Shown here piece by piece: positions 10,788 through 37,918 of a DNA stretch of 45,695 nt. Made by a program: the position numbers and the translations under genes. Origin of the DNA: a phage; the NCBI GenBank assembly GCA_032325415.1, contig GCA_032325415.1_4119.2; one strand, written 5' to 3'. Within the stretch, counting starts at the first letter, position 1; every line of letters begins with the position of its first letter. The notes under the pieces are model-generated. The model saw only the letters and a list, made by a program, of their open reading frames with translations, was not told where the DNA came from and made no database searches.

Positions 10788-10882
10788 AAAAAAGTGGTTG
10801 ACTTCGGTCAGCCATTTTGCTATTATATATTCATTGAGAGATAGCTCACTAGCCCACAGGGTGCAGGAGTGTATCTATTATA
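10788..10882 (+). repeat. R module copy 1: terminator-like hairpin with embedded promoter plus conserved core AGCCCACAGGGTGCAGGAGTGTATCT
   Basis: Hairpin GTGGTTGAC-TTCG-GTCAGCCAT (wobble-compensated), -35 TTGACT 10798-10803, -10 TATTAT 10821-10826; homologous to 14813, 17527, 19497. Confidence 0.65.
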
Positions 10883-10920
10883 TGAGTATTGAGTACTGAA
10901 AACTATTTTTAAAAAAGTAC

Positions 10921-10948
10921 TTGCAAACTATCTCAATAAGCGTATAAT
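10921..10948 (+). promoter_or_regulatory. sigma70-like promoter (cassette type)
   Basis: -35 TTGCAA 10921-10926, 16-bp spacer, -10 TATAAT 10943-10948; hairpin AGGGGAAAC-G-GTTTCCCCT. Confidence 0.65.
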
Positions 10949-10999
10949 GTTTTACATCGAAAGGGGAAACGGTTTCCCCTGGTAATAAGGAAACAAATC

Positions 11000-11341
11000 A
11001 TGACTATCTCAATTGCTCAATCTAACTTTGAAAATGAAATCATCGCCCAGGCACTGCGTTTAAATGATGGTCGGGCCGAAATTAATTACGGTTTCAATTC
11101 AGGCGGTTGTGAAAAATATCAGTACTTTGTAACGGCTGATGGCGGTGTCCTGGGTATCAATACAGTTATTGTAAACATCCAAAAAATTAATTTCAATGAT
11201 CCAGAGGATAGCCAGTTTTACATCACTGGCGTAGACGTGAACTATGAGGATGACTCACTAACTGATGATCACACTGGTGAGCGGTTAGAAAGTGCATACG
11301 GTGAAGATGATTATCAGTCCGGTCCAGAAGATTTCGAATAA
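11000..11341 (+). CDS. hypothetical acidic protein (113 aa)
   Basis: SD TAAGGAAA then ATG 11000; track ORF. Confidence 0.65.
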   Translation: MTISIAQSNFENEIIAQALRLNDGRAEINYGFNSGGCEKYQYFVTADGGVLGINTVIVNIQKINFNDPEDSQFYITGVDVNYEDDSLTDDHTGERLESAYGEDDYQSGPEDFE

Positions 11342-11355
11342 TATAAAAAAATAGT

Positions 11356-11383
11356 TTGACAATAGATTATAGTACTGTATAAT
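11356..11383 (+). promoter_or_regulatory. sigma70-like promoter (cassette type)
   Basis: -35 TTGACA 11356-11361, 16-bp spacer with AGTACTG, -10 TATAAT 11378-11383; hairpin GGGGAGAA-TAG-TTCTCCCC. Confidence 0.65.
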
Positions 11384-11436
11384 AGTTTACATCAAGGGGA
11401 GAATAGTTCTCCCCACTAACAGAGAGAGAAAACAAA

Positions 11437-11649
11437 ATGGCTAATATCCGGTCGAAATTAAAAAATGCAAAACAAGTTTTATTTTCAGATCATGAATACT
11501 TTAATAAAGATATTACAGGAGTTACAAGTATCAAGGAAGTAAAAGAAAAAACCGGCGTTTTGTGTGATGTGCGATTAGTTGGAACATTTGGGAATAACGT
11601 GCTATATCGCTGCGGTGATTACAATTTTACACTGACTATCATTAACTAA
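11437..11649 (+). CDS. hypothetical protein (70 aa)
   Basis: ATG 11437 after AGAGAGAGAAAACAAA leader; track ORF. Confidence 0.6.
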   Translation: MANIRSKLKNAKQVLFSDHEYFNKDITGVTSIKEVKEKTGVLCDVRLVGTFGNNVLYRCGDYNFTLTIIN

Positions 11650-11661
11650 AAATATTATCAC

Positions 11662-11697
11662 AGTACTATTGACATAGTTTGATAGTACTGACATAAT
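11662..11697 (+). promoter_or_regulatory. promoter with operator-like inverted repeat AGTACTAT-N12-ATAGTACT
   Basis: AGTACTAT 11662-11669, -35 TTGACA 11669-11674, ATAGTACT 11682-11689, -10 CATAAT 11692-11697. Confidence 0.6.
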
Positions 11698-11731
11698 AAC
11701 TTTTATCAACTACACTACTAAGGAATTAAAA

Positions 11732-11911
11732 ATGGCTATCATCGCAAAAACTGAAATCATCGGCCTGGATTCTATCATCATGACGTTTGAAGATCAAAAA
11801 GGTATGTATGTGGTTTCCTATGGTGATTATGTTCGGGAGTATGAAACGGTAGACGAAGCCTTTGAAAGTTACATTCGCCAGGTGAATAAAGCATACGACG
11901 ACTACCGCTAA
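11732..11911 (+). CDS. small protein (59 aa), not in ORF track
   Basis: SD TAAGGAAT then ATG 11732; ORF MAIIAKTEIIGLDSIIMTFEDQKGMYVVSYGDYVREYETVDEAFESYIRQVNKAYDDYR; the minus-strand track ORF 11778..11978 is rejected. Confidence 0.55.
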   Translation: MAIIAKTEIIGLDSIIMTFEDQKGMYVVSYGDYVREYETVDEAFESYIRQVNKAYDDYR

Positions 11912-11922
11912 AATATATTACC

Positions 11923-11966
11923 AGTACTATTAAATCTATTGACAATGTTTGATAGTACTGTATAAT
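11923..11966 (+). promoter_or_regulatory. promoter with operator-like inverted repeat AGTACTAT-N21-ATAGTACT
   Basis: AGTACTAT 11923-11930, -35 TTGACA 11939-11944, ATAGTACT 11952-11959, -10 TATAAT 11961-11966. Confidence 0.6.
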
Positions 11967-12010
11967 AAGTTTTATCAACAGTAGTTAACTTAACCTAAGA
12001 GAGAAACAAA

Positions 12011-12154
12011 ATGATCGCACTGGATTCATTCATCGACGCAGTACTGGCAAAAACTGGCGAGGATCTGACCGCAGAACAATACGCGATGATCGAGCAATGC
12101 CAGCAAGACGGTAAATCGGTGAAAGATACTGTTAAGATTATCCGCAAGATGTAA
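12011..12154 (+). CDS. small protein (47 aa), not in ORF track
   Basis: SD TAAGAGAGA then ATG 12011; ORF MIALDSFIDAVLAKTGEDLTAEQYAMIEQCQQDGKSVKDTVKIIRKM; followed by terminator. Confidence 0.5.
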   Translation: MIALDSFIDAVLAKTGEDLTAEQYAMIEQCQQDGKSVKDTVKIIRKM

Positions 12155-12160
12155 GATTAT

Positions 12161-12190
12161 AGCCCACTGGTTAACGCTGGTGGGCTTTAA
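12161..12190 (+). terminator. probable rho-independent terminator
   Basis: AGCCCAC-TGGTTAACGC-TGGTGGGCT hairpin then TTTAATT (weak T-run). Confidence 0.55.
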
Positions 12191-12259
12191 TTCATTACCC
12201 TATACAATGCCAGTACTACACCGTTTATCTCGTTAGAATGCGTTACAGGACGTTTGACA

Positions 12260-12457
12260 ATGATTAGCATGAAATCAGTACAAAAACAAATAGAAACATT
12301 ATCAAAAATTAAACGTAAACAGTACTCCTTAGAATATACAATCAATGGTAACTATCATCTAATGAAAGAGAATAATTTTATCGTCATTGATGAATCATTG
12401 CAAATCATTAGTATAGTACTGAAAGCATTAATCAATGACAGAAAAAAATTAAAATAA
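12260..12457 (+). CDS. hypothetical AT-rich protein (65 aa)
   Basis: Track ORF; ATG 12260 with SD-like AGGACG 7 nt upstream; no cassette promoter; composition differs from neighbours. Confidence 0.4.
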   Translation: MISMKSVQKQIETLSKIKRKQYSLEYTINGNYHLMKENNFIVIDESLQIISIVLKALINDRKKLK

Positions 12458-12461
12458 ACTA

Positions 12462-12490
12462 TTGACAATATCATCAAGTACTGGCATAAT
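12462..12490 (+). promoter_or_regulatory. sigma70-like promoter
   Basis: -35 TTGACA 12462-12467, 17-bp spacer with AGTACTG, -10 CATAAT 12485-12490. Confidence 0.55.
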
Positions 12491-12541
12491 ACTTACATCA
12501 AGACGAGAACGTCACTAACCCATAGGGTGCACAAATGTAAC

Positions 12542-12625
12542 TGTATAATATTGATCAAAAAATGATCTGATCAATACTTGATCAATTTGCGTAAAGTAGT
12601 ATAATTCTGATCAATTCTTGATCAA
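12542..12625. promoter_or_regulatory. cluster of six GATC sites (five within TGATCAA palindromes) flanked by extended -10-like elements
   Basis: GATC at 12553, 12564, 12569, 12580, 12609, 12620; TGTATAAT 12542-12549 and TAGTATAAT 12597-12605. Confidence 0.55.
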
Positions 12626-12786
12626 AGGCAATAAACGCAGTTGAATTTATATAGACAATACAAAGGCGTTACTATCCGTGGTAATGCTGGTGGATATGTA
12701 GTATCATATGGTTTGAATAAGATTAGCACTAGTAGTATTATTGTAGCATTACAGTACTATAGTATTTTTATAATGAGGTTAAAATA

Positions 12787-13044
12787 ATGGCTGTTGGATT
12801 CGCGAAGGACGGGGCCGAGCAAGACGAGATTAACGCAGTGATTCAGGCCGCTGTAAACCACGCTAGAACGCAAATTAACGCACAAATAGAATCACTGATA
12901 CATTGCCTCGACTGTGGCGATAAAATCCCTGAGAATCGCCGCCAGGTCGTTAAGGGGTGTAAGTACTGTATCACTTGCCAGGAGGATCATGATAGTACTT
13001 TTAAACGTCAACCGCGTAATTGTTGGCATAGATCTATGAGATAA
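12787..13044 (+). CDS. TraR/DksA-family C4 zinc-finger protein (85 aa), likely RNA-polymerase-binding regulator
   Basis: CLDCGDKIPENRRQVVKGCKYCITCQ matches the TraR/DksA zinc-finger pattern CxxCG-x-IP-x-x-RR ... CxxCQ (compare F-plasmid TraR CEACGNPIPEARRK...CVECQ). Confidence 0.8.
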   Translation: MAVGFAKDGAEQDEINAVIQAAVNHARTQINAQIESLIHCLDCGDKIPENRRQVVKGCKYCITCQEDHDSTFKRQPRNCWHRSMR

Positions 13045-13050
13045 AAAGTA

Positions 13051-13078
13051 TTGACAGTACTGAAAGATAGTGTATAAT
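13051..13078 (+). promoter_or_regulatory. sigma70-like promoter
   Basis: -35 TTGACA 13051-13056, 16-bp spacer with AGTACTG, -10 TATAAT 13073-13078. Confidence 0.6.
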
Positions 13079-13107
13079 GTTTTATATCTTAACTGAGGAT
13101 AGAAATC

Positions 13108-13464
13108 ATGGGAATACAACATATCACGCGTACTACTGACAATGGCGAGATCACTGGCTATCAAGTACAGGGCAAAGTAGCACAATTGCAGTACTGGTTT
13201 GTTAAACGTGGAATCATTGCACCGGATCTTGATTATGACCGTGTAGCGTTTATTGATTCTCTTTATGTTGATCCTGATAGTCGGGGGAATGGTGAAGGTA
13301 ACGAATTAATGAATGCCTTTATTGATGCCGCCGATGATTCAGATTGTATCATCTTAGAATGCGATACGGGAGAAGATAACGCCTTTAATCTTAAAGAATG
13401 GTATGAAGGTTTCGGATTCGAGGTACTGATCGATAGTGAATATCCTATCATGATTTTATCATAG
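13108..13464 (+). CDS. putative GNAT-family N-acetyltransferase (118 aa)
   Basis: SLYVDPDSRGNGEGNELMNAF resembles GNAT motif A (R/Q-x-x-G-x-G/A acetyl-CoA loop) and EWYEGFGFE resembles motif B; SD TGAGGAT. Confidence 0.55.
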   Translation: MGIQHITRTTDNGEITGYQVQGKVAQLQYWFVKRGIIAPDLDYDRVAFIDSLYVDPDSRGNGEGNELMNAFIDAADDSDCIILECDTGEDNAFNLKEWYEGFGFEVLIDSEYPIMILS

Positions 13465-13467
13465 TAC

Positions 13468-13496
13468 TTGCATTTAGTTTTCAGTACTGTTATAGT
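13468..13496 (+). promoter_or_regulatory. sigma70-like promoter (cassette type)
   Basis: -35 TTGCAT 13468-13473, 17-bp spacer with CAGTACTG, -10 TATAGT 13491-13496; hairpin AGGGGAA-ACATC-TTCCCCT. Confidence 0.55.
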
Positions 13497-13542
13497 ACTT
13501 GCATCAAGGGGAAACATCTTCCCCTACTAAGAGGAAATAAAA

Positions 13543-13731
13543 ATGGAAAACTTATCAAGTATTTTAGTACAAGATGATTTCGGTAATCCTGGAAGTGCTA
13601 TCATTGTTCGGGGTAATAAAGCAACATTTGTTATTGCTGGTGGACCTGTACAGCGTAGCATTAAAAACAATGCCGTTACTATTAATAATGTACGCTATCG
13701 CTTAGATAAAGAATTGATTCATAAACTGTAA
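13543..13731 (+). CDS. hypothetical protein (62 aa)
   Basis: SD TAAGAGGA then ATG 13543; track ORF. Confidence 0.6.
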   Translation: MENLSSILVQDDFGNPGSAIIVRGNKATFVIAGGPVQRSIKNNAVTINNVRYRLDKELIHKL

Positions 13732-13758
13732 TATTAATTTAATAGAGGATAACAATAA

Positions 13759-14082
13759 ATGTACATTCATACTACTATCACAAAGGAAGTCCGTTGCCAG
13801 TTCGAAAGTATTCCGGGCGTATGTTTCATCACTGGTACGTTTTCCCCTGGTGATCGTGATAATCCAGTACTGTTACAATTACGCCATCCATCATGGGATA
13901 AAGCATTTGATCTACCGTTGAATGAATTCGCAACTACTGCTGAAAAGTACATTAAAAATATTCGCGAGAATGATCGACTATTCATTAATGCTTTTAGTGA
14001 TTCCGCGTTAAGCGAGATCCACGGCGTATTGGTTGCAATCATGGAATCAATGCAGAAAACTAAATTCAAACAAGGTGAATAA
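13759..14082 (+). CDS. hypothetical protein (107 aa)
   Basis: SD AGAGGA then ATG 13759; track ORF; overlapping minus-strand ORF 13767..14177 rejected. Confidence 0.6.
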   Translation: MYIHTTITKEVRCQFESIPGVCFITGTFSPGDRDNPVLLQLRHPSWDKAFDLPLNEFATTAEKYIKNIRENDRLFINAFSDSALSEIHGVLVAIMESMQKTKFKQGE

Positions 14083-14088
14083 AAACTA

Positions 14089-14116
14089 TTGACAATGCAA
14101 TCCAGTACTGTATAAT
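14089..14116 (+). promoter_or_regulatory. sigma70-like promoter (cassette type)
   Basis: -35 TTGACA 14089-14094, 16-bp spacer with CAGTACTG, -10 TATAAT 14111-14116; hairpin GGGGAGAA-ATGA-TTCTCCCC. Confidence 0.65.
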
Positions 14117-14165
14117 AAGTTACATGAAGGGGAGAAATGATTCTCCCCACTGAGAGGAAAGAAAA

Positions 14166-14378
14166 ATGCAAGGTCAACTAATCGTTCGTAAATGGTCTGA
14201 TACTAACGAAAAACCGTGGGATGTACAATACATCGGACCGGATGGGGTATCACGTTATCAGCCTGGCGTAACGCATAGTACTGAGCAATTCGCCAACGCT
14301 CACCGCGAACGCCTGTTAGAATCCATGAAACAGGGATACGGTGAAAAATTCATTCAAGATCATTGGCTGAAAGATTAA
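14166..14378 (+). CDS. hypothetical protein (70 aa)
   Basis: SD TGAGAGGA then ATG 14166; track ORF. Confidence 0.65.
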   Translation: MQGQLIVRKWSDTNEKPWDVQYIGPDGVSRYQPGVTHSTEQFANAHRERLLESMKQGYGEKFIQDHWLKD

Positions 14379-14395
14379 TATAAGGAGTACAGCTT

Positions 14396-14488
14396 ATGCA
14401 AATGAATCCGATGATTATTGTTTTAGCTGTACTTATGATCATTCATGCAATAGTAGAAGTATTAACGCAATCAGGAGTAATAAAATGA
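14396..14488 (+). CDS. small hydrophobic membrane peptide (30 aa)
   Basis: Strong SD TAAGGAG then ATG 14396; MQMNPMIIVLAVLMIIHAIVEVLTQSGVIK; not in track. Confidence 0.5.
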   Translation: MQMNPMIIVLAVLMIIHAIVEVLTQSGVIK

Positions 14489-14658
14489 TTCAAGTAGAAT
14501 TATCAGTACTGAAAGATCTGTTTTATCGGTTAGGTACTACTGGAGAGTATCCTAAAAGTGATACCGCAAAACTTTTTGTATCACTCGACTTATGGCAACG
14601 CGAACAATTAGTAATGTCCTGGCGTAAAGGTAAAGCAGATAGCGAGGTGAAAGCATGA
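14485..14658 (+). CDS. small protein (57 aa)
   Basis: ATG 14485 overlaps upstream stop (ATGA) with SD CAGGAG inside the upstream ORF; not in track. Confidence 0.45.
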   Translation: MIQVELSVLKDLFYRLGTTGEYPKSDTAKLFVSLDLWQREQLVMSWRKGKADSEVKA

Positions 14659-14804
14659 AAGAATTCTTATTCGAAGTAGTGTTTCAAGGTGTCGGTAGTA
14701 ACCAACTGATTCGCTCAAGTGGTTATAATGTTAACCAGGCATGGAATAACATTAAACAAATGTACCCGAACGCTATCACCTATCGCAACCCGAAAGAAGT
14801 TTAA
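14655..14804 (+). CDS. small protein (49 aa)
   Basis: ATG 14655 overlaps upstream stop (ATGA); SD GAGGTG; not in track. Confidence 0.45.
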   Translation: MKEFLFEVVFQGVGSNQLIRSSGYNVNQAWNNIKQMYPNAITYRNPKEV

Positions 14805-14812
14805 AAATATTT

Positions 14813-14900
14813 GAAAAAGGGATTGACTCCGGTCAGTCCCTTTGCTATTATATACGCATAGAAACAAATCAGCCCACAGGGTGCATAAATGTATCTATTG
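14813..14900 (+). repeat. R module copy 2 (terminator-like hairpin, embedded promoter, conserved core)
   Basis: AAAAAGGGATTGACTCCGGTCAGTCCCTTT hairpin; -35 TTGACT 14823-14828, -10 TATTAT 14846-14851; core AGCCCACAGGGTGCATAAATGTATCT. Confidence 0.65.
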
Positions 14901-14935
14901 TTTGCTGGTGGCTAGTACTGAAAACTATTTTTAAA

Positions 14936-15117
14936 AAGTACTTGCATTGTACTTAGAATCAAGTATAATGTTTTACATCAGGACGGGGAACGAAACAAGT
15001 AACCCCGTTAAGTAGTCCAGGAGTAAGACATAAGAAAACCTCCCCTGATAAAATAGTTTGACAATAGAAAGTAAAAGAGTATAATACTTACATCAACCAC
15101 TGATAAGGAAACATAAA
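14936..15117 (+). repeat. dual-promoter leader module, copy 2 (near-identical to 3990-4172)
   Basis: Promoter A (-35 TTGCAT 14942-14947, -10 TATAAT 14964-14969), hairpin ACGGGGAA...CCCCGT, conserved AAGTAGTCCAGGAGTAAGACATAAGAAAACCTCCCCTGATAAAATAG, promoter B (-35 TTGACA 15058-15063, -10 TATAAT 15080-15085). Confidence 0.7.
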
Positions 15118-15393
15118 ATGCGGATTCTACTGACAGCTAACGAAATCGAACAAGTACTGACTACTAACCTGGAAGACTGGAAACGTGAAGCAGATATCCA
15201 GGCGGTTCAACGGCTTAACGATGAGTTAACGCCGGATGACTTAAGCAAGATTGTAGATCCTCAATTCTACGAAGATATCCACGACACCGCGTTAAGCGTC
15301 GAGGATGTACTAGATAAGCACTACATTGATATTGATTTGCAGGTTTACGGTCGTAAAAACTTTATCACTATTCACGACATTTACAATAATTAA
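15118..15393 (+). CDS. hypothetical acidic protein (91 aa)
   Basis: SD TAAGGAAA then ATG 15118; track ORF. Confidence 0.65.
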   Translation: MRILLTANEIEQVLTTNLEDWKREADIQAVQRLNDELTPDDLSKIVDPQFYEDIHDTALSVEDVLDKHYIDIDLQVYGRKNFITIHDIYNN

Positions 15394-15396
15394 GTA

Positions 15397-15424
15397 TTGA
15401 CAAAGTATCTTAGTACTGTATAAT
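15397..15424 (+). promoter_or_regulatory. sigma70-like promoter (cassette type)
   Basis: -35 TTGACA 15397-15402, 16-bp spacer with AGTACTG, -10 TATAAT 15419-15424; hairpin GAGGGGAA-ACGG-TTCCCCTC. Confidence 0.65.
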
Positions 15425-15481
15425 AGTTTACATCAAGTGAGGGGAAACGGTTCCCCTCCTAACAAAGAGAGAGAAATAAAA

Positions 15482-15805
15482 ATGGCTATGATCCTTACCC
15501 AGAAAGTGGAACTGAAAATTGTAACCTCCTTTGACATTAACGTTAATCGGTGGACTGATTCACACGGCAATACTTACCACTCTTGCTACGTGTCTGCTTT
15601 AATTGGCGACCGCTGGGAAGACCTGGGACACGAAACCTTTACATACGGTTACGGTACACAAGGCGAATACACGGGCTTGGAGATCATTAAAGAAACCGTT
15701 ATAGGTTTCAACCCGAAAGAAAAAGTTATTCACCGCATCGAGGAAGAGATCAACAAAGAAATAACAGTTCGCTACCACGATGTAAAACGTAAGAAAGACA
15801 TGTAA
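15482..15805 (+). CDS. hypothetical protein (107 aa), distant paralog of 8879..9223
   Basis: ATG 15482 in frame with track ORF 15437 whose start is in the leader hairpin. Confidence 0.65.
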   Translation: MAMILTQKVELKIVTSFDINVNRWTDSHGNTYHSCYVSALIGDRWEDLGHETFTYGYGTQGEYTGLEIIKETVIGFNPKEKVIHRIEEEINKEITVRYHDVKRKKDM

Positions 15806-15819
15806 TAGAATCCATTTAA

Positions 15820-15856
15820 AGTACTATTTGACATTGCCCAGATAGTACTTTATAAT
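15820..15856 (+). promoter_or_regulatory. promoter with operator-like inverted repeat AGTACTAT-N14-ATAGTACT
   Basis: AGTACTAT 15820-15827, -35 TTGACA 15828-15833, ATAGTACT 15842-15849, -10 TATAAT 15851-15856. Confidence 0.6.
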
Positions 15857-15900
15857 AGACTCTAACTTGTAGTACTAACTCAACTAATAGGATGTATACC

Positions 15901-16296
15901 ATGATTACTAAATTCTACGCTACCCGTGAAGCTGCCCGTATTGTTGCACGCGAGGAAGGAGCAGCATTTAAAGACATGGGCAAAGATGCACCGAAAGGCC
16001 AACGCTGGGCCGTACAGTTCAAAGAGATCTCTGATATTGTGAATTCACCTGAGCCAGTACTAACAGCAGCAGAACTAAAACGAGCGGATTTACTGGCGTC
16101 AATACTTGATGCACAAGATGAGTTTATCGCTGATTCTGATATCAAAGTACAGACAAACCATACCGCTTGGACTCACGCGGATCACCTGGCAAACCTGAAG
16201 CGTCCAAGTGAACTGGTACGCAACCAGAAAGAGATCCGACACGACCGTAAGGGTAATCGTGTAACAGTATACAGTAAACGCCGCCAGGTTATCTAA
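15901..16296 (+). CDS. hypothetical protein (131 aa), paralog of 3163..3429
   Basis: ATG 15901 chosen by paralog alignment and SD AGGAT spacing; track start 15892 is an alternative. Confidence 0.6.
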   Translation: MITKFYATREAARIVAREEGAAFKDMGKDAPKGQRWAVQFKEISDIVNSPEPVLTAAELKRADLLASILDAQDEFIADSDIKVQTNHTAWTHADHLANLKRPSELVRNQKEIRHDRKGNRVTVYSKRRQVI

Positions 16297-16318
16297 TAAC
16301 TTGCAGTACTAACAACAC

Positions 16319-16344
16319 GGCGGGATCAGTTCCCGCCTTTTTTA
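16319..16344 (+). terminator. rho-independent terminator
   Basis: GGCGGGA-TCAG-TTCCCGCC followed by TTTTTTAT. Confidence 0.8.
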
Positions 16345-16357
16345 TAGGACAAACAAA

Positions 16358-16612
16358 ATGATTAAGGTTCAACTATATAAAGATAATATCTTGCGGGTAC
16401 ACTATAAAGCCCCTCAGAGAATCATCACAAAGGCCGTACAGCTTGCTAATGAGTTTATTAATGGTAACCTATTACCTAGGAAGTTAAGCAACGGGAAACT
16501 GCGTGTAATCGACGTGGACACTAACAACAGGATAGTAATCGAGAACACAGGAAAGATAAACCTTTATGAGCATCAACAATACAATAAGAAAATAAAACTA
16601 ATATCACGTTGA
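16358..16612 (+). CDS. hypothetical protein (84 aa)
   Basis: Track ORF downstream of terminator; weak SD. Confidence 0.5.
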   Translation: MIKVQLYKDNILRVHYKAPQRIITKAVQLANEFINGNLLPRKLSNGKLRVIDVDTNNRIVIENTGKINLYEHQQYNKKIKLISR

Positions 16613-16637
16613 CAGTACTCAAATGTTTTAGTACTAT
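16609..16637 (+). promoter_or_regulatory. putative sigma70-like promoter
   Basis: -35 TTGACA 16609-16614, 17-bp spacer, -10 TACTAT 16632-16637. Confidence 0.45.
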
Positions 16638-16666
16638 ATGTACATACCAACACGGGGAGAAACAAA

Positions 16667-16909
16667 ATGATTACTTTAGAAAAACGTATCAAAGAAACTA
16701 CATCGCTGGTGGAACTGTTAACAGTACTCAAATGTAAAACTACTCGGTTTAGTACACCGGACTTTATTAATATGGTTGATGTTAATGGTCGCTATCGTAT
16801 CACGGTCGAACAAGGAGCGGCGAAAGTATTCAGTACTAAAAACACTAAGGAAGTGATTCACGCTGTAAGTGTTAAAAAAGTAGTTGCCATTGATAGTAAA
16901 GTACTGTAA
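16667..16909 (+). CDS. hypothetical protein (80 aa)
   Basis: SD GGGGAGA then ATG 16667; track ORF. Confidence 0.55.
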   Translation: MITLEKRIKETTSLVELLTVLKCKTTRFSTPDFINMVDVNGRYRITVEQGAAKVFSTKNTKEVIHAVSVKKVVAIDSKVL

Positions 16910-16940
16910 GATAGTTTCATTAACTCAAGGAGAACATGCA

Positions 16941-17525
16941 ATGCGTAATTATACTAAATTCATCCGTACCCTGTCAGAAATGGAAACCAACAAAGAGATC
17001 CTTTCAGCTTGTCGGTTAGCTGGTCTGGAGATCATCGGTGCGGGTTCTTCCCGTATTGTATTCGCTTTAAATGATCGGTTAGTGATTAAGGTCGCGAATT
17101 GTGATGCGGGTGTAGAACAAAATGAAACTGAATGTAAGGTATGGAATTTTTTAGATTATGACCGCCCTCAATTGAAACAGTACTTTGCAAAGGTGCATAT
17201 GCATTTATGCGATCCTGATAATATGTTTATCGTTATGGATCGGTTGAGTACTGCAAGTAAAGGCAGTGTAAAGCACGTAAACGCGTGCAATGAATTAAAG
17301 TACAATATTAAACGTAATGCCATTGAACGCCAGCACCGCTTTGCTGATGCACTACAACACGTTGATGATACATTATCAACACTAACGATAAGAGATATCA
17401 GAAAACAGAATATCGGCCAGGATCGTAATGGCCTTATTAAAGTACTTGATTACGGTTTAACCCGCAATATCTGGAATCAGTACTATAAAAAGCGTGATGT
17501 AGAAGCAAGTAAGGTAACACGATAA
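16941..17525 (+). CDS. putative small protein-kinase-like protein (194 aa)
   Basis: SD AAGGAG then ATG 16941; motifs IGAGSSRIVF (Gly-rich loop), LVIKVA (VAIK-like Lys), IRDIRKQNIG (HRD-x-K-x-x-N-like catalytic loop), KVLDYGL (DFG-like). Confidence 0.55.
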   Translation: MRNYTKFIRTLSEMETNKEILSACRLAGLEIIGAGSSRIVFALNDRLVIKVANCDAGVEQNETECKVWNFLDYDRPQLKQYFAKVHMHLCDPDNMFIVMDRLSTASKGSVKHVNACNELKYNIKRNAIERQHRFADALQHVDDTLSTLTIRDIRKQNIGQDRNGLIKVLDYGLTRNIWNQYYKKRDVEASKVTR

Positions 17526-17526
17526 A

Positions 17527-17612
17527 AAAAGATTAAAAAAGGGATTGACTCCGGTCAGTCCCTTTGCTATTATATATTCATTGAGAGATAACTCACTGAC
17601 CCATAGGGTGCG
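17527..17612 (+). repeat. R module copy 3 (terminator-like hairpin, embedded promoter, conserved core)
   Basis: AAAAAAGGGATTGACTCCGGTCAGTCCCTTT; -35 TTGACT 17545-17550, -10 TATTAT 17568-17573; core GACCCATAGGGTGCGGAAGTGTATCT. Confidence 0.65.
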
Positions 17613-17666
17613 GAAGTGTATCTATTATATAAGTATTCAGTACTGAAAACTATTTTTAAAAAGTAC

Positions 17667-17694
17667 TTGCATTGTACTTAGAATCAAGTATAAT
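17667..17694 (+). promoter_or_regulatory. sigma70-like promoter (cassette type)
   Basis: -35 TTGCAT 17667-17672, 16-bp spacer, -10 TATAAT 17689-17694; hairpin GAGAGGGGAA-ATGG-TTCTCCCTC. Confidence 0.65.
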
Positions 17695-17747
17695 GTTTTA
17701 TATCGAGAGGGGAAATGGTTCTCCCTCAAAGAACAAGGAATAAAATC

Positions 17748-17969
17748 ATGACTACAATGACTTGCATTCACGCTTCAAACCTGCTTAATGATGCGGCCTT
17801 TAATGTTGAAACAGAATATCAATGTTATCGGGATGAAAATAAAAAAGTTTTTGTAGTTGATAATAATGGTTTCCATATTGAATTGCAATCCGGCTTCACT
17901 GGCGTTGATGGTAAATCAGTATGGGGAGTACAGGATGATAAAGGCACATATCATTTTAAACGTAATTAA
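17748..17969 (+). CDS. hypothetical protein (73 aa)
   Basis: SD AAGGAAT then ATG 17748, in frame with track ORF 17715. Confidence 0.65.
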   Translation: MTTMTCIHASNLLNDAAFNVETEYQCYRDENKKVFVVDNNGFHIELQSGFTGVDGKSVWGVQDDKGTYHFKRN

Positions 17970-17972
17970 GTA

Positions 17973-18000
17973 TTGACAAAGTATATCAGTACTGTATAAT
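17973..18000 (+). promoter_or_regulatory. sigma70-like promoter (cassette type)
   Basis: -35 TTGACA 17973-17978, 16-bp spacer with CAGTACTG, -10 TATAAT 17995-18000; hairpin GGGGAGAA-TAG-TTCTCCCC. Confidence 0.65.
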
Positions 18001-18053
18001 AGTTTACATCAAGGGGAGAATAGTTCTCCCCACCAATAAAAGGAAACAAAATT

Positions 18054-18326
18054 ATGTCCAGCTACTCCGCTACTATGATTATTAAAGATATGAACGGTAA
18101 TCCTACTTCTGCTGGTGGATCATTTGGTAACATTAACTTAGATGGGCGGTTATCAATTGAATCAGCCATCAATGCCGCGAAAGAAGTTTTTAAGAATGAA
18201 TGTACTGTAAGCAAGCTGGATTATATGGGCTTCGCTATCGAGAAAACTAATCGTTTTGTGGACTACAAAAAACCACTGATGATCGATACTAACCTGAAAG
18301 CTAACGAAGTGGAATACTTATTATGA
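18054..18326 (+). CDS. hypothetical protein (90 aa)
   Basis: SD AAAGGAAA then ATG 18054; track ORF. Confidence 0.65.
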   Translation: MSSYSATMIIKDMNGNPTSAGGSFGNINLDGRLSIESAINAAKEVFKNECTVSKLDYMGFAIEKTNRFVDYKKPLMIDTNLKANEVEYLL

Positions 18327-18514
18327 CAGTAGAAGAAGTTAAAAAAGTACTGGCAGTACTACGCTATCATAATCATTGCAAGGTGAAGAATGATCCTGAT
18401 TATGTTGATTCATCCCTGGAGGAAGACACATTAAACGCAATAAGCCATATGCAAAAAATGCTTAAGCGTATGACCGAAAAGAACAGGCCAGACTATATCG
18501 GAAATAAAATTTAA
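18323..18514 (+). CDS. hypothetical protein (63 aa)
   Basis: ATG overlaps upstream stop (ATGA), translational coupling; track ORF. Confidence 0.55.
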   Translation: MTVEEVKKVLAVLRYHNHCKVKNDPDYVDSSLEEDTLNAISHMQKMLKRMTEKNRPDYIGNKI

Positions 18515-18521
18515 AAAGTAC

Positions 18522-18549
18522 TTGCATTGTAGTTAGATTAACGTATAAT
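18522..18549 (+). promoter_or_regulatory. sigma70-like promoter (cassette type)
   Basis: -35 TTGCAT 18522-18527, 16-bp spacer, -10 TATAAT 18544-18549; hairpin GCGGGGGAA-TAG-TTCTCCCGC. Confidence 0.65.
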
Positions 18550-18600
18550 GTTTTACATAGAGCGGGGGAATAGTTCTCCCGCCAGTCCAGGAGATACACC

Positions 18601-18864
18601 ATGAACACTATCGAAATCACTATCAATGCACACGTATACGACAACGTAGTACTGCAAACTACTATGACCGCCAATGATACCAGTACTTTGCGGAATGCCG
18701 TTGTAAGTGCTGTATGTGCTGCAATCGGTGATGTAGCCCTGGAAAATGCAGAACACATCAACAACGGTTTCACTATGTGCAAACGTGATAACGCAAAACA
18801 TATCATCGTAGAAGGTTACGGCGGTGTAGAATTTAATGTTTATATGAAAAAAGTACTTGCATAA
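18601..18864 (+). CDS. hypothetical protein (87 aa)
   Basis: SD CCAGGAGA then ATG 18601; last codons overlap the next -35. Confidence 0.65.
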   Translation: MNTIEITINAHVYDNVVLQTTMTANDTSTLRNAVVSAVCAAIGDVALENAEHINNGFTMCKRDNAKHIIVEGYGGVEFNVYMKKVLA

Positions 18865-18884
18865 TAACTAAAACAAAGTATAAT
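18857..18884 (+). promoter_or_regulatory. sigma70-like promoter (cassette type)
   Basis: -35 TTGCAT 18857-18862, 16-bp spacer, -10 TATAAT 18879-18884; hairpin GGGGGAG-ATAT-CCTCCCCC. Confidence 0.65.
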
Positions 18885-18931
18885 GTTTTGCATAGGGGGA
18901 GATATCCTCCCCCACTAAAAGGAGTAATAAA

Positions 18932-19156
18932 ATGGCTAACTTTGATGAACTGATGCGGGAAGTAGCTAACCTGGCAGAAGAGAAGAAATCATTCGATTCT
19001 ATCTATAACACCGCTCACCGTGATTCAGTACTGGCATGTACTCAGGATCAAAAAGATGAACTAATCGCCACCTATCATGAAGCATGGAAGTACTACCGAC
19101 AATGGGAGAAAGAAGAAAGTGAGTCTACCATTGACGGCCTCAATAATCTAATCTAA
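18932..19156 (+). CDS. hypothetical acidic protein (74 aa)
   Basis: SD AAAGGAGT then ATG 18932; track ORF. Confidence 0.65.
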   Translation: MANFDELMREVANLAEEKKSFDSIYNTAHRDSVLACTQDQKDELIATYHEAWKYYRQWEKEESESTIDGLNNLI

Positions 19157-19168
19157 AAGTTTTATTTC

Positions 19169-19205
19169 AGTACTATTGACATAGCTTGATAGTACTGATG
19201 TAATA
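19169..19205 (+). promoter_or_regulatory. promoter with operator-like inverted repeat AGTACTAT-N12-ATAGTACT
   Basis: AGTACTAT 19169-19176, -35 TTGACA 19176-19181, ATAGTACT 19189-19196, -10-like TGTAAT about 19199-19204. Confidence 0.55.
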
Positions 19206-19232
19206 ACTTTACTAACTACAAGGGGAAACATA

Positions 19233-19490
19233 ATGGAACAGTTCACACAATATCGGGTAAATCCTCAAGCTATGGCCTACGTAGAAGACCATAAAACATT
19301 ACCAGTACTGCAACCAGTTAAAGGCCATATCTATCGTGCTATGTCGTGGAGTACGGCCCAGGATGGCTATAAAACCGTAGCCGTTGGTATGTATTGCGGG
19401 AATGGTGAATGGTTTGATCCAAATAATCCGGTAGCCATTGACAGTACTGAAAAAATGAAATGGGCCGACTACATCGAAGATATTTCATAA
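19233..19490 (+). CDS. hypothetical protein (85 aa)
   Basis: SD AAGGGGA then ATG 19233; track ORF. Confidence 0.6.
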   Translation: MEQFTQYRVNPQAMAYVEDHKTLPVLQPVKGHIYRAMSWSTAQDGYKTVAVGMYCGNGEWFDPNNPVAIDSTEKMKWADYIEDIS

Positions 19491-19496
19491 AAAGAA

Positions 19497-19585
19497 TAAA
19501 AAAGGGATTGACTCCGGTCAGTCCCTTTGCTATTATATACGCATAGACAAAAACTAGCCCACAGGGTGCATAGGTGTATCTAAAA
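19497..19585 (+). repeat. R module copy 4 (terminator-like hairpin, embedded promoter, conserved core)
   Basis: AAAAAAGGGATTGACTCCGGTCAGTCCCTTT; -35 TTGACT 19508-19513, -10 TATTAT 19531-19536; core AGCCCACAGGGTGCATAGGTGTATCT. Confidence 0.65.
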
Positions 19586-19670
19586 TATATAGTTAATAAC
19601 GGTGAGTAACTATCTGCTGGTGGATGTACTGCCAGTACTCAAGGGAACTAAAACTATTAATAAAAAAGTA

Positions 19671-19699
19671 TTGACAAAGTATATCAGTACTGCGATAAT
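19671..19699 (+). promoter_or_regulatory. sigma70-like promoter
   Basis: -35 TTGACA 19671-19676, 17-bp spacer with CAGTACTG, -10 GATAAT 19694-19699. Confidence 0.55.
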
Positions 19700-19752
19700 G
19701 TATCTCGTAGGGCGGCAATGGTGCGACGGCCCACAAAGTTAGGAGATTCAAA

Positions 19753-20085
19753 ATGAGTACTTCAATCGCTATCGTTAAAGCTTTCATCCGTACCAATGTT
19801 TCATCTGTATTCATCGACGGACTGGATCGTGAAGTAGAATACTCAATCATTATCGCACAGACTGCAAACGGTGCTCGGTATATCCTCAATGATAGTGAAG
19901 CAAATCACTACTACTTCACTAAAGCTACTGGCTTTAAACGCATCGATGCCGATGTAGTATACGCTAAGATGAATAAGCTGGTAGACAAGATTAACGCTAA
20001 AGGCACTATTGATTTACAGTACTGGACCGAAACCGATCCAGAATATGGATCTCACCGCTACCTGAATCCAGGTATCAAAATGTAA
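19753..20085 (+). CDS. hypothetical protein (110 aa)
   Basis: SD TAGGAG then ATG 19753; track ORF; overlapping minus-strand ORF 19593..19889 rejected. Confidence 0.65.
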   Translation: MSTSIAIVKAFIRTNVSSVFIDGLDREVEYSIIIAQTANGARYILNDSEANHYYFTKATGFKRIDADVVYAKMNKLVDKINAKGTIDLQYWTETDPEYGSHRYLNPGIKM

Positions 20086-20092
20086 AAAGTAC

Positions 20093-20120
20093 TTGCATAG
20101 TACTTAGATTCATGTATAAT
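20093..20120 (+). promoter_or_regulatory. sigma70-like promoter (cassette type)
   Basis: -35 TTGCAT 20093-20098, 16-bp spacer, -10 TATAAT 20115-20120; hairpin GAGGGGGAA-ATGG-TTCTCCCTC. Confidence 0.65.
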
Positions 20121-20174
20121 GTTTTACATAGAGAGGGGGAAATGGTTCTCCCTCCTAAATTAAGGAGTTTTATC

Positions 20175-20576
20175 ATGACCTTCTCAATCACTTCCTTCGC
20201 TGACGTTTTAGTACTGGCTCGGACTTTTGGTAAAGATGCACTGGAGTACGCTGTAAGTAATGGTACTATCCAACCGGAACAGTGCCGCATCATTGGAAAC
20301 TGCAAACGTTGGGCGGTATCCAATACTATTGCACTGGAAAACTTCCACGATGGCAACAATGAATATTCTGTTGATGTAGTATTCGAAGCCGTTGATCTCG
20401 GCGGTATCTATAATACTAACCTGAATGATGTGCGTATCGTTCGCACGGGGTTCGGTGCTTATGATGTATCTATTCGTGAAGCTATGAACACCGGATACAT
20501 TAGCAAGGACTTACTTGCTCACATCATGCAGCTGTGTACGGAACGTAACGAAGCACGTACTATCTTAGGGCTGTAA
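20175..20576 (+). CDS. hypothetical protein (133 aa)
   Basis: SD TAAGGAGT then ATG 20175, in frame with track ORF 20112 whose start is in the promoter. Confidence 0.65.
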   Translation: MTFSITSFADVLVLARTFGKDALEYAVSNGTIQPEQCRIIGNCKRWAVSNTIALENFHDGNNEYSVDVVFEAVDLGGIYNTNLNDVRIVRTGFGAYDVSIREAMNTGYISKDLLAHIMQLCTERNEARTILGL

Positions 20577-20854: not shown

Positions 20855-20882
20855 TGCGTAAAGGGATCTAGTACTGATTCAG

Positions 20883-20948
20883 AAAAAAGTCAAGGCGTTT
20901 TTAAAATTATGCGTTAAAAAAATGCATAGGTAATCCCTTGACTTTTTT
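20883..20948. promoter_or_regulatory. perfect 13-bp inverted repeat AAAAAAGTCAAGG / CCTTGACTTTTTT with about 40-bp spacer at module boundary
   Basis: Arms at 20883-20895 and 20936-20948; flanked by AAGGGAT / ATCCCTT; related in sequence to the R-module hairpin. Confidence 0.6.
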
Positions 20949-21045
20949 GAAATAAAAGGGATTGGACTATGGCAAAATGCGTAGGGGGCTAAAGGGCGGG
21001 TAACCTTAGCGACTTCGATAAAGGTGTATTACGAATAAAATGTTA

Positions 21046-21073
21046 TTGATTTTTTATACGAATCGTATATTAT
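21046..21073 (+). promoter_or_regulatory. putative promoter for the paralog array, with palindromic operator-like site TATACGA-A-TCGTATA
   Basis: -35 TTGATT 21046-21051, 16-bp spacer, -10 TATTAT 21068-21073; near-perfect palindrome 21055-21069. Confidence 0.45.
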
Positions 21074-21103
21074 AGGATTGATATTATTTTTAATGGAGTC
21101 CCT

Positions 21104-35687: not shown

Positions 35688-35891
35688 ATGAATAATTTTA
35701 GAGATGTTGCTAAGGAGAAGTTCAAGTGCAGTTTAGATTTTGGGTTAAATGATTTTCTGACATGCACAATGTACAGGAATGATGATTATGAGCAATCCGT
35801 AATTTCGTTGCACAGATATTTCGAAATAATTTACGCAAGATATCTTAGAAGGTTAGAGGGAATAGGGGATTGGAATTATGATTACGTTTGA
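35688..35891 (+). CDS. hypothetical protein (67 aa)
   Basis: Track ORF; upstream gap holds a possible 56-aa ORF (35528..35698) sharing QYTYA with the 30764 gene. Confidence 0.45.
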   Translation: MNNFRDVAKEKFKCSLDFGLNDFLTCTMYRNDDYEQSVISLHRYFEIIYARYLRRLEGIGDWNYDYV

Positions 35892-36102
35892 AGAGCCGGA
35901 AGTGGCATATTGCTTTAGTGTGAAAGGTTTTGAATTCATGATGGATTCTATTTTGAAGGATACATATTTGGTTCAGATTGCAGTTGCAGATAATACAGAT
36001 AATGCATTACAGCGAGTATTGAATATATACGAGAGGACGAGTCGAAGGCTTTGTGCGATGAAAAGGATTGAAGAAATCAAGGTTTCTAGGCTGAATAAAT
36101 AG
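35878..36102 (+). CDS. hypothetical protein (74 aa)
   Basis: Track ORF, overlapping start. Confidence 0.45.
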   Translation: MITFEEPEVAYCFSVKGFEFMMDSILKDTYLVQIAVADNTDNALQRVLNIYERTSRRLCAMKRIEEIKVSRLNK

Positions 36103-36111
36103 AGACGTTTC

Positions 36112-36250
36112 ATTTTGACAGGCCGCAGGGGGGTCAAAAAAATTTCCGCTGAAAAACATGCTAAGGTATATGTTTAATATAAAGTTTTATATTGTGTTTT
36201 TCAGAGTACAGGGCATGTTTCCTGAAACAAAAAATACCCCGCCGCCGCAA
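36112..36250. repeat. imperfect inverted repeat with GC-rich arms flanking an AT-rich core, inside the AT-rich array
   Basis: GGCCGCAGGGGGGTCAAAAAAATTTCCGCTGAAAAACATGC versus GCATGTTTCCTGAAACAAAAAATACCCCGCCGCCGC (reverse-complement related); non-coding. Confidence 0.45.
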
Positions 36251-36299
36251 CGTGCTCCTTATATTGGAGTTTACCTTATTAATTATAGTAGAGATTAAG

Positions 36300-36677
36300 A
36301 TGGAAATAAAATATAATGAATTTTGTGCAAGGACATGGATGTACACTGGTGAGTTAGTTACGCACTCTAACTTATACAAGGGTGATTTAAACTACGCTAG
36401 GGACAAGATTTTAAAGTACTGGAATGCTGACTTTTATTTGATGGATTTTAGTACTGGGTTTAGGGGTAAAGCAACCGAGATGTTGGACTATACAGTACTT
36501 GATGATGCTGCACTGTTTCAGGAGGCATTAGTATTTGATAAGAAGTACATCTGTACATTAGAAGAGATGATTGAAATCCAGCGTAGAATTAAATGTATTC
36601 ACAGAGAATGTATAGACATCTGGTGCAGTACTGGTGAAGATGATTTTTGTAATCATTTCAATCTAGGGGAAGAGTGA
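36300..36677 (+). CDS. family-B paralog, B1 subgroup (125 aa; track start 36192)
   Basis: ATG 36300; LDDAALFQEALVFDKKYICTLEEMIEIQ; upstream part of the track ORF crosses the inverted-repeat region. Confidence 0.55.
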   Translation: MEIKYNEFCARTWMYTGELVTHSNLYKGDLNYARDKILKYWNADFYLMDFSTGFRGKATEMLDYTVLDDAALFQEALVFDKKYICTLEEMIEIQRRIKCIHRECIDIWCSTGEDDFCNHFNLGEE

Positions 36678-36838
36678 TGGAATTTGATTTTTTAATATCA
36701 GTACATTCTTTTAAGCACAGTTATCAGTACTTTTGTAATTTAAACAAAGGTGATTTGATTATGGATACAGATACAGAGGCTGTATACAGTTCTAATATTC
36801 TGTACAAATTCAGTACTAATCTGAAGGAGATTTTATGA
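36677..36838 (+). pseudogene. truncated duplicate of the N-terminus of the 37206 gene (53-aa ORF)
   Basis: MEFDFLISVHSFKHSYQYFCNLNKGDL is near-identical to the first 27 aa of 37206..37562, then diverges and stops; lacks the family-B motif. Confidence 0.45.
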
Positions 36839-37206
36839 AAAAAGAAATTAGAATTCAATTCGGTATGAGGAAAAAAGAGGTCATCTGTACACTGAATCAT
36901 GCGGTCGTGGAAAGCCTTGGTGGTGCATTACAAAAATTCTCCCATTTTGTTCTTGTACTATATGAAAATGGGTCTTTTAAAATCTTCACATATGATGATT
37001 CAAAAAATTACCGTAATGATTTTGTAAATCTGACAGTACTGTCAGAAGAGGAATTCTTTCAGGAAAGTACTGTCTGGAATTTACCAGGAGCACCAATTGA
37101 ATACGTCCGTGCTACACAGGCAGAAATGATCAAAGTAATGCAGAACTATCCAGAAGATTATATGACTAAGTTTCCTGAATCTATTTATGTAGAGGTTGAG
37201 TACTGA
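36835..37206 (+). CDS. family-B paralog (123 aa)
   Basis: SD GAAGGAGA then ATG 36835; LSEEEFFQESTVWNLPGAPIEYV. Confidence 0.6.
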   Translation: MKKEIRIQFGMRKKEVICTLNHAVVESLGGALQKFSHFVLVLYENGSFKIFTYDDSKNYRNDFVNLTVLSEEEFFQESTVWNLPGAPIEYVRATQAEMIKVMQNYPEDYMTKFPESIYVEVEY

Positions 37207-37562
37207 TGGAATTTGATTTTTTAATATCAGTACATACTTTCAAGCACAGTTATCAGTACTTTTGTAATTTAAACAAAGGTGATTTAATGCACAGTGCAAA
37301 TGAGTATATTCATTACACTCAGGGTAAATTTACATTCATTGATTACAGTTCATTACAGTATCCACACCAAGATATGCCGGACTATACATTAATGGATACC
37401 GCAGAACTATTCCAAGAATCATTAGTATTTGATAAGAAGTACTTGTGTACATTTGAAGAAGTTATTGCAATACAAAATGAAATGAAAGAGTATGCTGCTT
37501 TGCATAAACCCAATGCAAGTATTAATCAAGAATACAAATTCAATTTAGGAATTCAAGAATGA
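37206..37562 (+). CDS. family-B paralog, B1 subgroup (118 aa)
   Basis: Overlapping start; MDTAELFQESLVFDKKYLCTFEEVIAIQNEMK. Confidence 0.6.
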   Translation: MEFDFLISVHTFKHSYQYFCNLNKGDLMHSANEYIHYTQGKFTFIDYSSLQYPHQDMPDYTLMDTAELFQESLVFDKKYLCTFEEVIAIQNEMKEYAALHKPNASINQEYKFNLGIQE

Positions 37563-37918
37563 CATATGATTATTCTATGTACTATTATAAGTTACCTAAA
37601 GGATGGGACTTGTGCTGTAATCTTATTAAGGGCGACTCGGAACATGAGTTGAGTTTATATATGCATTACAAAGATTCTTGTTTTAAATTTATTCATGTAT
37701 CACATGACGACTATGACTATGAATCTGAGAGTCTTATAGATTATACAGTACTGGACGATGGTGAACTATTTCAGGCTGCATTAGTGTTTGATAAGAATAA
37801 GTACTCCTGTACATTTGAAGAAATGGTTTCTTTGCAAAATGAAATGAAGAGATTTGAAAAAGAAAACGTATTTAATCCATCCCCATCAAGAACGAATAAT
37901 TATTATTTCAATATATGA
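37559..37918 (+). CDS. family-B paralog, B1 subgroup (119 aa)
   Basis: ATGA overlap; LDDGELFQAALVFDKNKYSCTFEEMVSLQNEMK. Confidence 0.6.
   Translation: MTYDYSMYYYKLPKGWDLCCNLIKGDSEHELSLYMHYKDSCFKFIHVSHDDYDYESESLIDYTVLDDGELFQAALVFDKNKYSCTFEEMVSLQNEMKRFEKENVFNPSPSRTNNYYFNI

Follow-up and report, generated by a model that had tools for sequence, protein, structure and literature searches.

Phase-variable promoters with a homopolymer between the −35 and the −10 element are known from Neisseria meningitidis, where porA carries a poly-G and opc a poly-C run at this position, and transcription-activated replication origins are known from phages T4 (oriF and oriG) and T7 (the primary origin). In T4-type phages, so-called promoter-early stem-loops (PeSLs), which are multi-copy elements with a common promoter and a short stem-loop, were reportedly proposed by Arbiol and colleagues in 2010 as recombination linkers in hyperplastic regions. 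Rak2-like phages have host-type promoters on their early genes as well as sigma factors of their own, and in CBB and GAP32 a class of "divergent RpoD-like" promoters has the form TGAAAC(G)-N17-TATAAT with a TGn extension (PMC5259590). Direct terminal repeats of about 21 kb have been described for fEgEco12 and Sharanji (PMC13070987, PMC11895373).

The locus discussed here lies in a window of 45,695 nucleotides (the whole stretch of DNA that was analysed), which was assigned by megablast to the genus Asteriusvirus and there to the group of PBECO4, 121Q and phAPEC6, with about 99% identity to phAPEC6 (99.3% over 3 kb). Members of this group are jumbo coliphages of about 350 kb that infect E. coli. 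Where a record begins at the physical left end, its homologous island is found at 34–38 kb, which places the start of the window near the left genome end. The window is the left 45.7 kb of an Asteriusvirus genome and positions 1 to ~21,000 are the terminal repeat, in which strong host-type promoters are abundant, each with a GGGGA...TCCCC hairpin downstream of it. Between 21 and 45.7 kb the list of open reading frames consists of densely packed small plus-strand genes. A single gap of more than 60 nt interrupts the array within 32.2–44.6 kb, where every gene is on the plus strand, and it is the only sizeable one in ~15 kb: it extends over 197 nt (36103–36299), from the TAG stop codon at 36100–36102 to the ATG at 36300. 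The original prediction of a GC-rich island at a boundary within a gene array is correct with regard to its position. The region contains the following features:

35878–36102, plus strand: upstream gene, 74 aa, with its final ~60 nt within the locally conserved zone
36103–36299, no strand assigned: intergenic block, non-coding, one copy per genome, Asteriusvirus only
36115–36143, plus strand: candidate sigma-70-like promoter with the −35 hexamer TTGACA (36115–36120) and the −10 hexamer AAAAAT (36138–36143)
36121–36134, no strand assigned: G-rich tract GGCCGCAGGGGGGT, 86% GC, with a poly-G run at 36128–36133
36135–36189, no strand assigned: core CAAAAAAATTTCCGCTGAAAAACATGCTAAGGTATATGTTTAATATAAAGTTTTA, 55 nt, almost invariant
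36149–36204, no strand assigned: imperfect palindrome or hairpin of 56 nt, outer arms 10/10, inner arms 8/8
36154–36161 and 36213–36220, no strand assigned: inner arms of the original prediction, AAACATGC and GCATGTTT, matching 8/8 in the window
36237–36248, no strand assigned: C-rich tract CCCCGCCGCCGC, 92% GC, with 5–10 bulged pairs possible with the G tract
36250–36299, plus strand: conserved proximal leader of the downstream gene with its translation-initiation region, 10 of 50 columns variable
36254–36270, plus strand: small hairpin GCTCC-N7-GGAGT of 4–5 pairs inside the proximal leader
36300–36677, plus strand: downstream gene, 125 aa, first of three paralogues

As predicted, this stretch of about 200 bp is non-coding, since the only ORF within the 197-nt gap (36158–36298, 46 aa) is thrown out of frame by indels in relatives and stops after 10 codons in one clade. 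It was therefore rejected as a gene; some records annotate it nevertheless (121Q gp364, WPEC3 CDS620, G17_00561). The upstream gene has homologues in Asteriusvirus only, with 58–100% amino acid identity, and its product matches phrog_401 only marginally (E 0.0076) and nothing in Pfam. The downstream gene belongs to phrog_15629, a PHROG without assigned function, and shares the motif LFQ(E/A)(A/S)LVFDK with its two paralogues at 37206–37562 and 37559–37918. Its label "amidohydrolase 3" in phAPEC6 is unsupported, as the Pfam search remained empty. The block was also considered as a terminal-repeat boundary or packaging site and rejected, because the repeats measure ~21 kb and the block lies ~15 kb further in.

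The claim that GC-rich tracts stand out from their AT-rich surroundings was confirmed. All four strings that had been singled out were recovered (GGCCGCAGGGGGGTC at 36121–36135, AAACATGC at 36154–36161, GCATGTTT at 36213–36220 and CCCCGCCGCCGC at 36237–36248), and within 21.2–45.7 kb no 14-nt window other than the G and the C tract reaches 12 G/C, i.e. no other tract of this density is present in the 24.5 kb past the terminal repeat. In addition, of all runs made up of G and C only, CCCCGCCGCCGC is the longest in the window of 45.7 kb, with a runner-up of 9, and a further 50 kb of phAPEC6 contain two 14-nt windows with at least 12 G/C, both of which are coding. The sequence between the tracts had been described as an AT-rich core, which is true in so far as its GC content is 27.5%, but the local genome average of 32.5% is merely about 5 points higher. 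In an alignment of 22 relatives the poly-G run varies from 4 to 10 G, and the 3′ half of the C tract differs among relatives as well, with 4 of 13 columns variable. We infer that both tracts are slippage-prone. Some of the differences in poly-G length could be homopolymer sequencing errors.

The comparison of the block among relatives comprises 22 aligned versions, all from close relatives. Within this set the core has 5 variable columns out of 55 (9%) compared to 65 of 199 third-codon positions (33%) in the flanking genes (Fisher p = 3e-4), and over the whole block 38 of 197 columns are variable, versus 23–33% in the flanking genes. Variation is higher at 36115–36134, where the −35-like hexamer and the G tract have 8 variable columns out of 20, and in the right arm of the 10-bp repeat that closes the 56-nt hairpin (6 of 15 columns), and it climbs again past 36190, a pattern that is expected if a DNA signal and not an RNA fold is constrained. 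Judged from these alignments, the short non-coding core appears to be under constraint.

Our preferred reading, which we put forward tentatively, is that the block may be a dispensable, genus-specific intergenic control region, composed of promoter or regulatory DNA and a leader, that heads the paralogous early-gene cluster. Most likely, such a region would work as DNA, providing a promoter or a site for a regulator, with a leader behind it that is not translated. The best candidate in the window, TTGACA-17-AAAAAT, agrees with the sigma-70 consensus at 10 of 12 positions; its 17-nt spacer is within the range of 16–18 nt, is GC-rich and contains the poly-G run. In a position-weight scan it reaches 11.1 bits and ranks 73rd among 639,170 sites of the window (top 0.011%), and from the same scan we estimate that an equally strong site would occur by chance in about 1 in 8 regions of 200 nt. 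A consensus scan revealed no excess of promoter-like sites in the region (30 versus 35.8 expected from shuffles). The candidate scores at least 9.7 bits in 8 of the 22 relatives. In 10 of them the G of the −35 element is replaced by T or C (TTTACA or TTCACA), phage A4 is without a −35 element, and changes in the poly-G run shift the spacer from ~14–15 nt to ~21–22 nt. Neither the hexamers nor their spacing are conserved in the relatives, and no other sigma-70 candidate is common to all. The other two gaps in the same stretch of genes have clear sigma-70 promoters at 32170 and 44589.

Like the sigma-70 early promoters with leaders in T4, T5 and Rak2-like phages, the candidate lies on the coding strand, heads a group of small early genes and combines TTGACA, 17 nt and an A+T-rich −10 element. 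Unlike these, its −10 element is weak (AAAAAT), its GC-rich spacer contains a poly-G run of variable length and its −35 element is not conserved across the genus. The inferred transcription start at ~36150 coincides with the start of the 56-nt hairpin, and this order of promoter and hairpin echoes the layout in the phage's own terminal repeat, where 33 early promoter cassettes likewise have a hairpin at the 5′ end of the transcript. A copy of the cassette itself (AAAAAGTACTTGCAA-N16-TATAATGTTTTACATC-hairpin) was rejected, as the profile built from the 33 cassettes found no match in 36103–36299 at E values up to 100; with this profile search empty, a degenerate copy was discarded as well, although GGTATATGTTTAATAT resembles CGTATAATGTTTTACAT by eye.

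As the TTGACA candidate is not conserved, a functional core must act by another route. It could be a non-canonical promoter, perhaps for a phage RpoD-like sigma factor, or a protein-binding site, and phAPEC6 encodes an RpoD-like sigma factor of its own (gp066c). A comparison of the core with the recognisable promoter classes of the phage gave no match. Similar to the CBB/GAP32 class, the core contains TGAAAAAC (36150–36157) followed by the −10-like hexamers TTTAAT and TAATAT, and the phage has an RpoD-like sigma factor of its own. In contrast to this class, TGAAAA is separated by 17 nt from TTTAAT, whose second position is not the key A, and by 19 nt from TAATAT, and the TG of the block is out of register with the CBB table. 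A pattern scan for the TGAAAC-type promoter returned only TGAAAA-N19-TAATAT at 36150, so that this assignment was rejected; a clean member of the class was not found in the window. A T4-type late promoter was rejected too, because TATAAATA occurs nowhere in the window and the block carries TATAAAGT; true late genes of phAPEC6 have (T)ATAAATA upstream. The operator-like palindromes AATATAAAGTTTTATATT and GTTTCCTGAAAC were dismissed as conserved sites, since each of them is broken in some relatives.

In the lineage of the window, host RNA polymerase with sigma-70 would initiate near 36150 from TTGACA-17-AAAAAT and produce a transcript with a leader of ~150 nt, which would open with the 56-nt hairpin and continue into the paralogues at 36300–37918. 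In lineages with a spoiled −35 element or spacing, expression would depend on read-through from upstream promoters, e.g. the one at 32170, and the conserved core possibly belongs to a promoter of non-canonical type or to a binding site of a factor that the phage encodes. In read-through RNA the G and C tracts could clamp the core in a long-range helix, of whose selection we see no sign. A literature search found no transcript data for Asteriusvirus. A more specific proposal is that the poly-G run in the spacer (4–10 G) works as a slippage-driven switch or tuner of the downstream paralogous early cluster. This arrangement resembles porA and opc in that a poly-G run within a sigma-70-like spacer differs among isolates and crosses the optimum of 16–18 nt; it differs from them in that the host of the element is a virulent phage and that half of the relatives show a decayed −35 element too, which argues for relaxed constraint rather than a tuned switch. 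We regard such a tuner as very unlikely. If it existed, it would represent a promoter of the contingency-locus type in a virulent jumbo phage and the phages of one population would differ in their expression of accessory genes, possibly with roles in host takeover or anti-defence.

The inverted repeat from which the original prediction started requires a closer look at folding. Its reverse-complement arms are perfect as far as the 8-bp inner arms are concerned, but inverted repeats that are perfect over 8 bp or more occur in ~22% of the 200-nt windows in 21–45 kb, i.e. at chance level, and in most relatives the outermost pair C36161–G36213 is a wobble or a mismatch. Complementarity between the G and C tracts is partial, with GGGG/CCCC and a few bulged GC pairs, and they are not true reverse complements. 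A 10/10 repeat that had not been mentioned, CTGAAAAACA (36149–36158) and TGTTTTTCAG (36195–36204), encloses the inner arms AATATAAA and TTTATATT (36176–36183 and 36186–36193, 8/8); repeats of at least 10 bp are found in only ~3% of 200-nt windows. The resulting 56-nt hairpin folds better than shuffles with z = −3.0 on the plus and −4.1 on the minus strand, values that are inflated because its boundaries were chosen after the repeat had been seen. This hairpin is one argument for an RNA element in a polycistronic early transcript, in which the tracts would form a G/C clamp and the AU-rich hairpin would act as RNase III/RNase E site or stabiliser, separating upstream from downstream mRNA segments. 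It is in line with this idea that the G tract pairs with the C tract in the minimum-energy fold of 22 of 22 relatives (duplex −10 to −20 kcal/mol) despite variation in both tracts, that both remain nearly pure G/C amid 32.5% GC, and that the early promoters of the terminal repeat also carry 5′ hairpins, so that hairpins fit the expression style of the phage. However, pairing of a G-run with a C-run is nearly automatic and hence no evidence for selection. The entire 201-nt region folds no better than shuffles (z = −0.45 plus, −1.47 minus), and for the originally proposed span, 36119–36252, the values are −1.56 and −1.99. In the 22 sequences none of 43 predicted pairs is altered on both sides, a count of low power as most pairs are invariant, and all changes observed in predicted pairs are one-sided or pair-breaking. 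In one clade (WPEC3, Turkey3, fEgEco12, J) the right arm of the 10-bp repeat is changed to TGTGTTCACAG or TGTGTTTTCAG without compensation, which weakens the hairpin from −11.6 to ~−7 kcal/mol. Conservation of the inverted repeat in relatives, as the original prediction would have it, is therefore not what we observe: the arms and GC tracts vary, the 10-bp repeat is broken in this clade and the conserved part is the primary-sequence core, so that the idea of the repeat as the functional feature finds no support. An RNA element seems rather unlikely to us. Searches against Rfam gave nothing at gathering score in the whole window and only chance-level matches (E ≥0.5) in 35900–36500 with E values up to 10, and a tRNA/tmRNA scan of the sequence found none.

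The two other functions that had been proposed for the repeat, a transcription terminator and a secondary origin, fare worse. A Rho-independent terminator of the upstream gene block would be suitably placed directly after the stop codon and next to GC-rich tracts, but these are ~100 nt apart, and the plus strand of 36103–36299 contains no GC hairpin with a short loop (3–8 nt) followed by a T-run. The C tract continues into AACGTGCTCC, and the only plus-strand hairpin near T residues (36254–36270) has just 4–5 pairs and is followed by TTACCTTATT. A single terminator-like match was obtained at 36252–36240 on the minus strand, where a weak stem of five pairs includes a G-T pair and no gene is present. 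Genuine terminators of the same genome look different, e.g. AGCCCACC...GGTGGGCTTTTTT, and we consider a terminator at this position extremely unlikely. A replication origin or DNA-unwinding element, possibly transcription-activated, would make use of the easily melted core between the GC clamps; the promoter-like site ahead of the core and the T-tracts at 36173, 36185 and 36197, phased by ~12 nt, would fit this picture. Against it speak the missing DnaA-like box (≤2 mismatches allowed), tandem iterons and GC-skew inflection, with a cumulative GC skew that rises steadily across the region, the small difference between core and local GC content, and the loss of the block from viable relatives. 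An origin is highly unlikely, and the GC-rich "inverted repeat" is neither a terminator, nor a recognisable origin, nor a conserved RNA structure.

The distribution of the block bears on the question of whether it has a dedicated function at all. It is present as a single copy in ~31 GenBank phages, all Asteriusvirus, and in three metagenome contigs; the latter are the true homologues (96–97.5% identity) among 49 loci of a metagenome scan. A search of IMG/VR for wider homologues retrieved only 121Q itself, and no homologues were found outside the genus among other phages, plasmids (chance matches only) and E. coli genomes. In UE-S1 the block is absent and the leader at 36250–36299 partly kept, in ph0011 positions 36115–36249 are exchanged for unrelated AT-rich sequence with the proximal 50 nt kept, and SD-1_S14 has lost ~35980 to 36228, mainly by a deletion between TTCAGA direct repeats, with an extra deletion of ~21 nt adjoining it. 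Any function of the block is therefore non-essential. Phage A4 retains the block from the poly-G run onward next to a much diverged left flank; the gene at 36300 is absent there and the block lies directly upstream of a different paralogue. These breakpoints at or in the block in four phages, together with an upstream gene whose divergence in 121Q and PBECO4 far exceeds that of the block, lend some indirect support to the part of the original prediction that proposed a recombination site separating array segments. In detail, the block of 121Q is 97.5% identical to that of the window, compared to 78.8% nucleotide and 65% protein identity for the upstream gene. Like the PeSLs, the block is a conserved non-coding element between variable modules of small genes with breakpoints at or in it; unlike them, it occurs only once and shows no sequence relationship to the multi-copy promoter/stem-loop cassette of the phage.

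The same observations could be explained by a mosaic junction or relic that has no dedicated function and persists between exchanged modules, its low diversity being due to recent genealogy. Across relatives the upstream gene is a mosaic with 65–100% amino acid identity versus 96–98% identity of the block, the block is dispensable in three lineages, and low diversity runs into 36040–36102, with 6 of 60 columns variable in 36040–36099. As low diversity includes the terminal 60 nt of the upstream gene, part of the conservation may stem from recent common ancestry of this segment in a mosaic genome, and thus from local genealogy instead of constraint. Nevertheless, the core is less variable than the third-codon positions of the downstream gene, which is expected to share this genealogy, and a neutral relic is unlikely to retain GC tracts of a kind that is otherwise absent from the non-coding DNA of this genome. 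A mere relic is thus in our view a doubtful explanation. An insertion of mobile DNA, i.e. a MITE-like remnant in which imperfect, GC-rich terminal inverted repeats flank an AT-rich core, would account for the variable presence of the block, for GC-rich ends of opposite polarity and for the ACGT on both flanks (36105, 36250). But each genome has a single copy, no copies were found in other phages, plasmids or E. coli genomes, the "terminal repeats" are only partly complementary, a clear target-site duplication was not seen, and the diverged AT-rich sequence of ph0011 at the same place suggests divergence in place rather than insertion. Such a remnant has the lowest probability of all the origins and functions considered here.

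Most likely, the block is an intergenic control region, a familiar type of non-coding element that is in this case specific to the genus, and marks a probable transcription-unit boundary in the early region of Asteriusvirus. If the promoter or the poly-G reading is true, it would provide a handle on the control of the paralogous early-gene cluster; beyond annotation the importance of the block is little. In the WPEC3 record BLAST placed the block at two positions, and within ±20 kb the other match is only a 23-nt stretch resembling an RBS.

The same repeat of about 21 kb that forms the left end of the genome holds all 11 Chi sites (GCTGGTGG; 1237-19623), with the plus strand carrying nine. This number compares with a chance expectation of 0.39 and was attained in no shuffle, and the arrangement looks like RecBCD protection for the ends of the linear genome. 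The features of the repeat and of the region beyond it are as follows.

Features in window coordinates, with counterparts in related phages
~1000-20200: 33 near-identical early promoter cassettes, AAAAAGTACTTGCAA/TTGACA-N16-17-TATAAT-GTTTTACATC
10785-10900, 14814-14897, 17536-17619 and 19499-19582: repeated element with the -35 sequence TTGACT within a hairpin (GGGATTGACTCCGGTCAGTCCC)
20855-21103: non-coding stretch of 249 nt at the terminal repeat's inner edge
~35980-36228 (equivalent position): natural deletion in Salmonella phage SD-1_S14 (L073, 380-400)
36300-36677: counterpart of phAPEC6 gp447c, 125 aa (L001, 1800-2177)

Each early promoter cassette is followed by a gene of ~60-110 aa, and in most cases a hairpin (GGGGAG...CTCCCC) and then a ribosome-binding site are located downstream of the promoter, which makes these cassettes similar to the promoter-early stem-loops of the T4 type. 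In the second type of element, of which the terminal repeat holds three or four copies, the hairpin that includes the -35 sequence precedes TATTAT and a conserved AGCCCACAGGGTGCA motif; similar promoters were also found in phAPEC6 (1-50 kb). Across the whole window, AGTACT and CAGTACTG motifs are highly frequent both near the promoters of the terminal repeat and within genes further along.

The stretch at the inner edge contains a G-rich segment (GTAGGGGGCTAAAGGGCGGG) as well as a promoter-like TTGATT-N16-TATTAT, and marks the switch from the promoter-dense organization to tightly packed genes. Between 27500 and 40000, many of these small genes are paralogous and have a short acidic/aromatic motif in common (EEYYFQQS, EEYFQESL, LFQEALVFDKKY), with their products spread over several phage protein families of unknown function (PHROGs 15629, 13866, 9317, 12674 and 30243). 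The GenBank name of gp447c, “amidohydrolase 3,” is unsupported, as a Pfam search with E-values up to 0.1 gave no match for this protein and PHROGs of unknown function were its sole matches.

In SD-1_S14, the natural deletion joins the 5′ third of the gene upstream of the intergenic block to the A-run and C tract of the block. This main deletion is flanked by TTCAGA direct repeats and adjoined by another one of ~21 nt. As the record of this phage comprises only 310 kb, it may carry many deletions of this kind.
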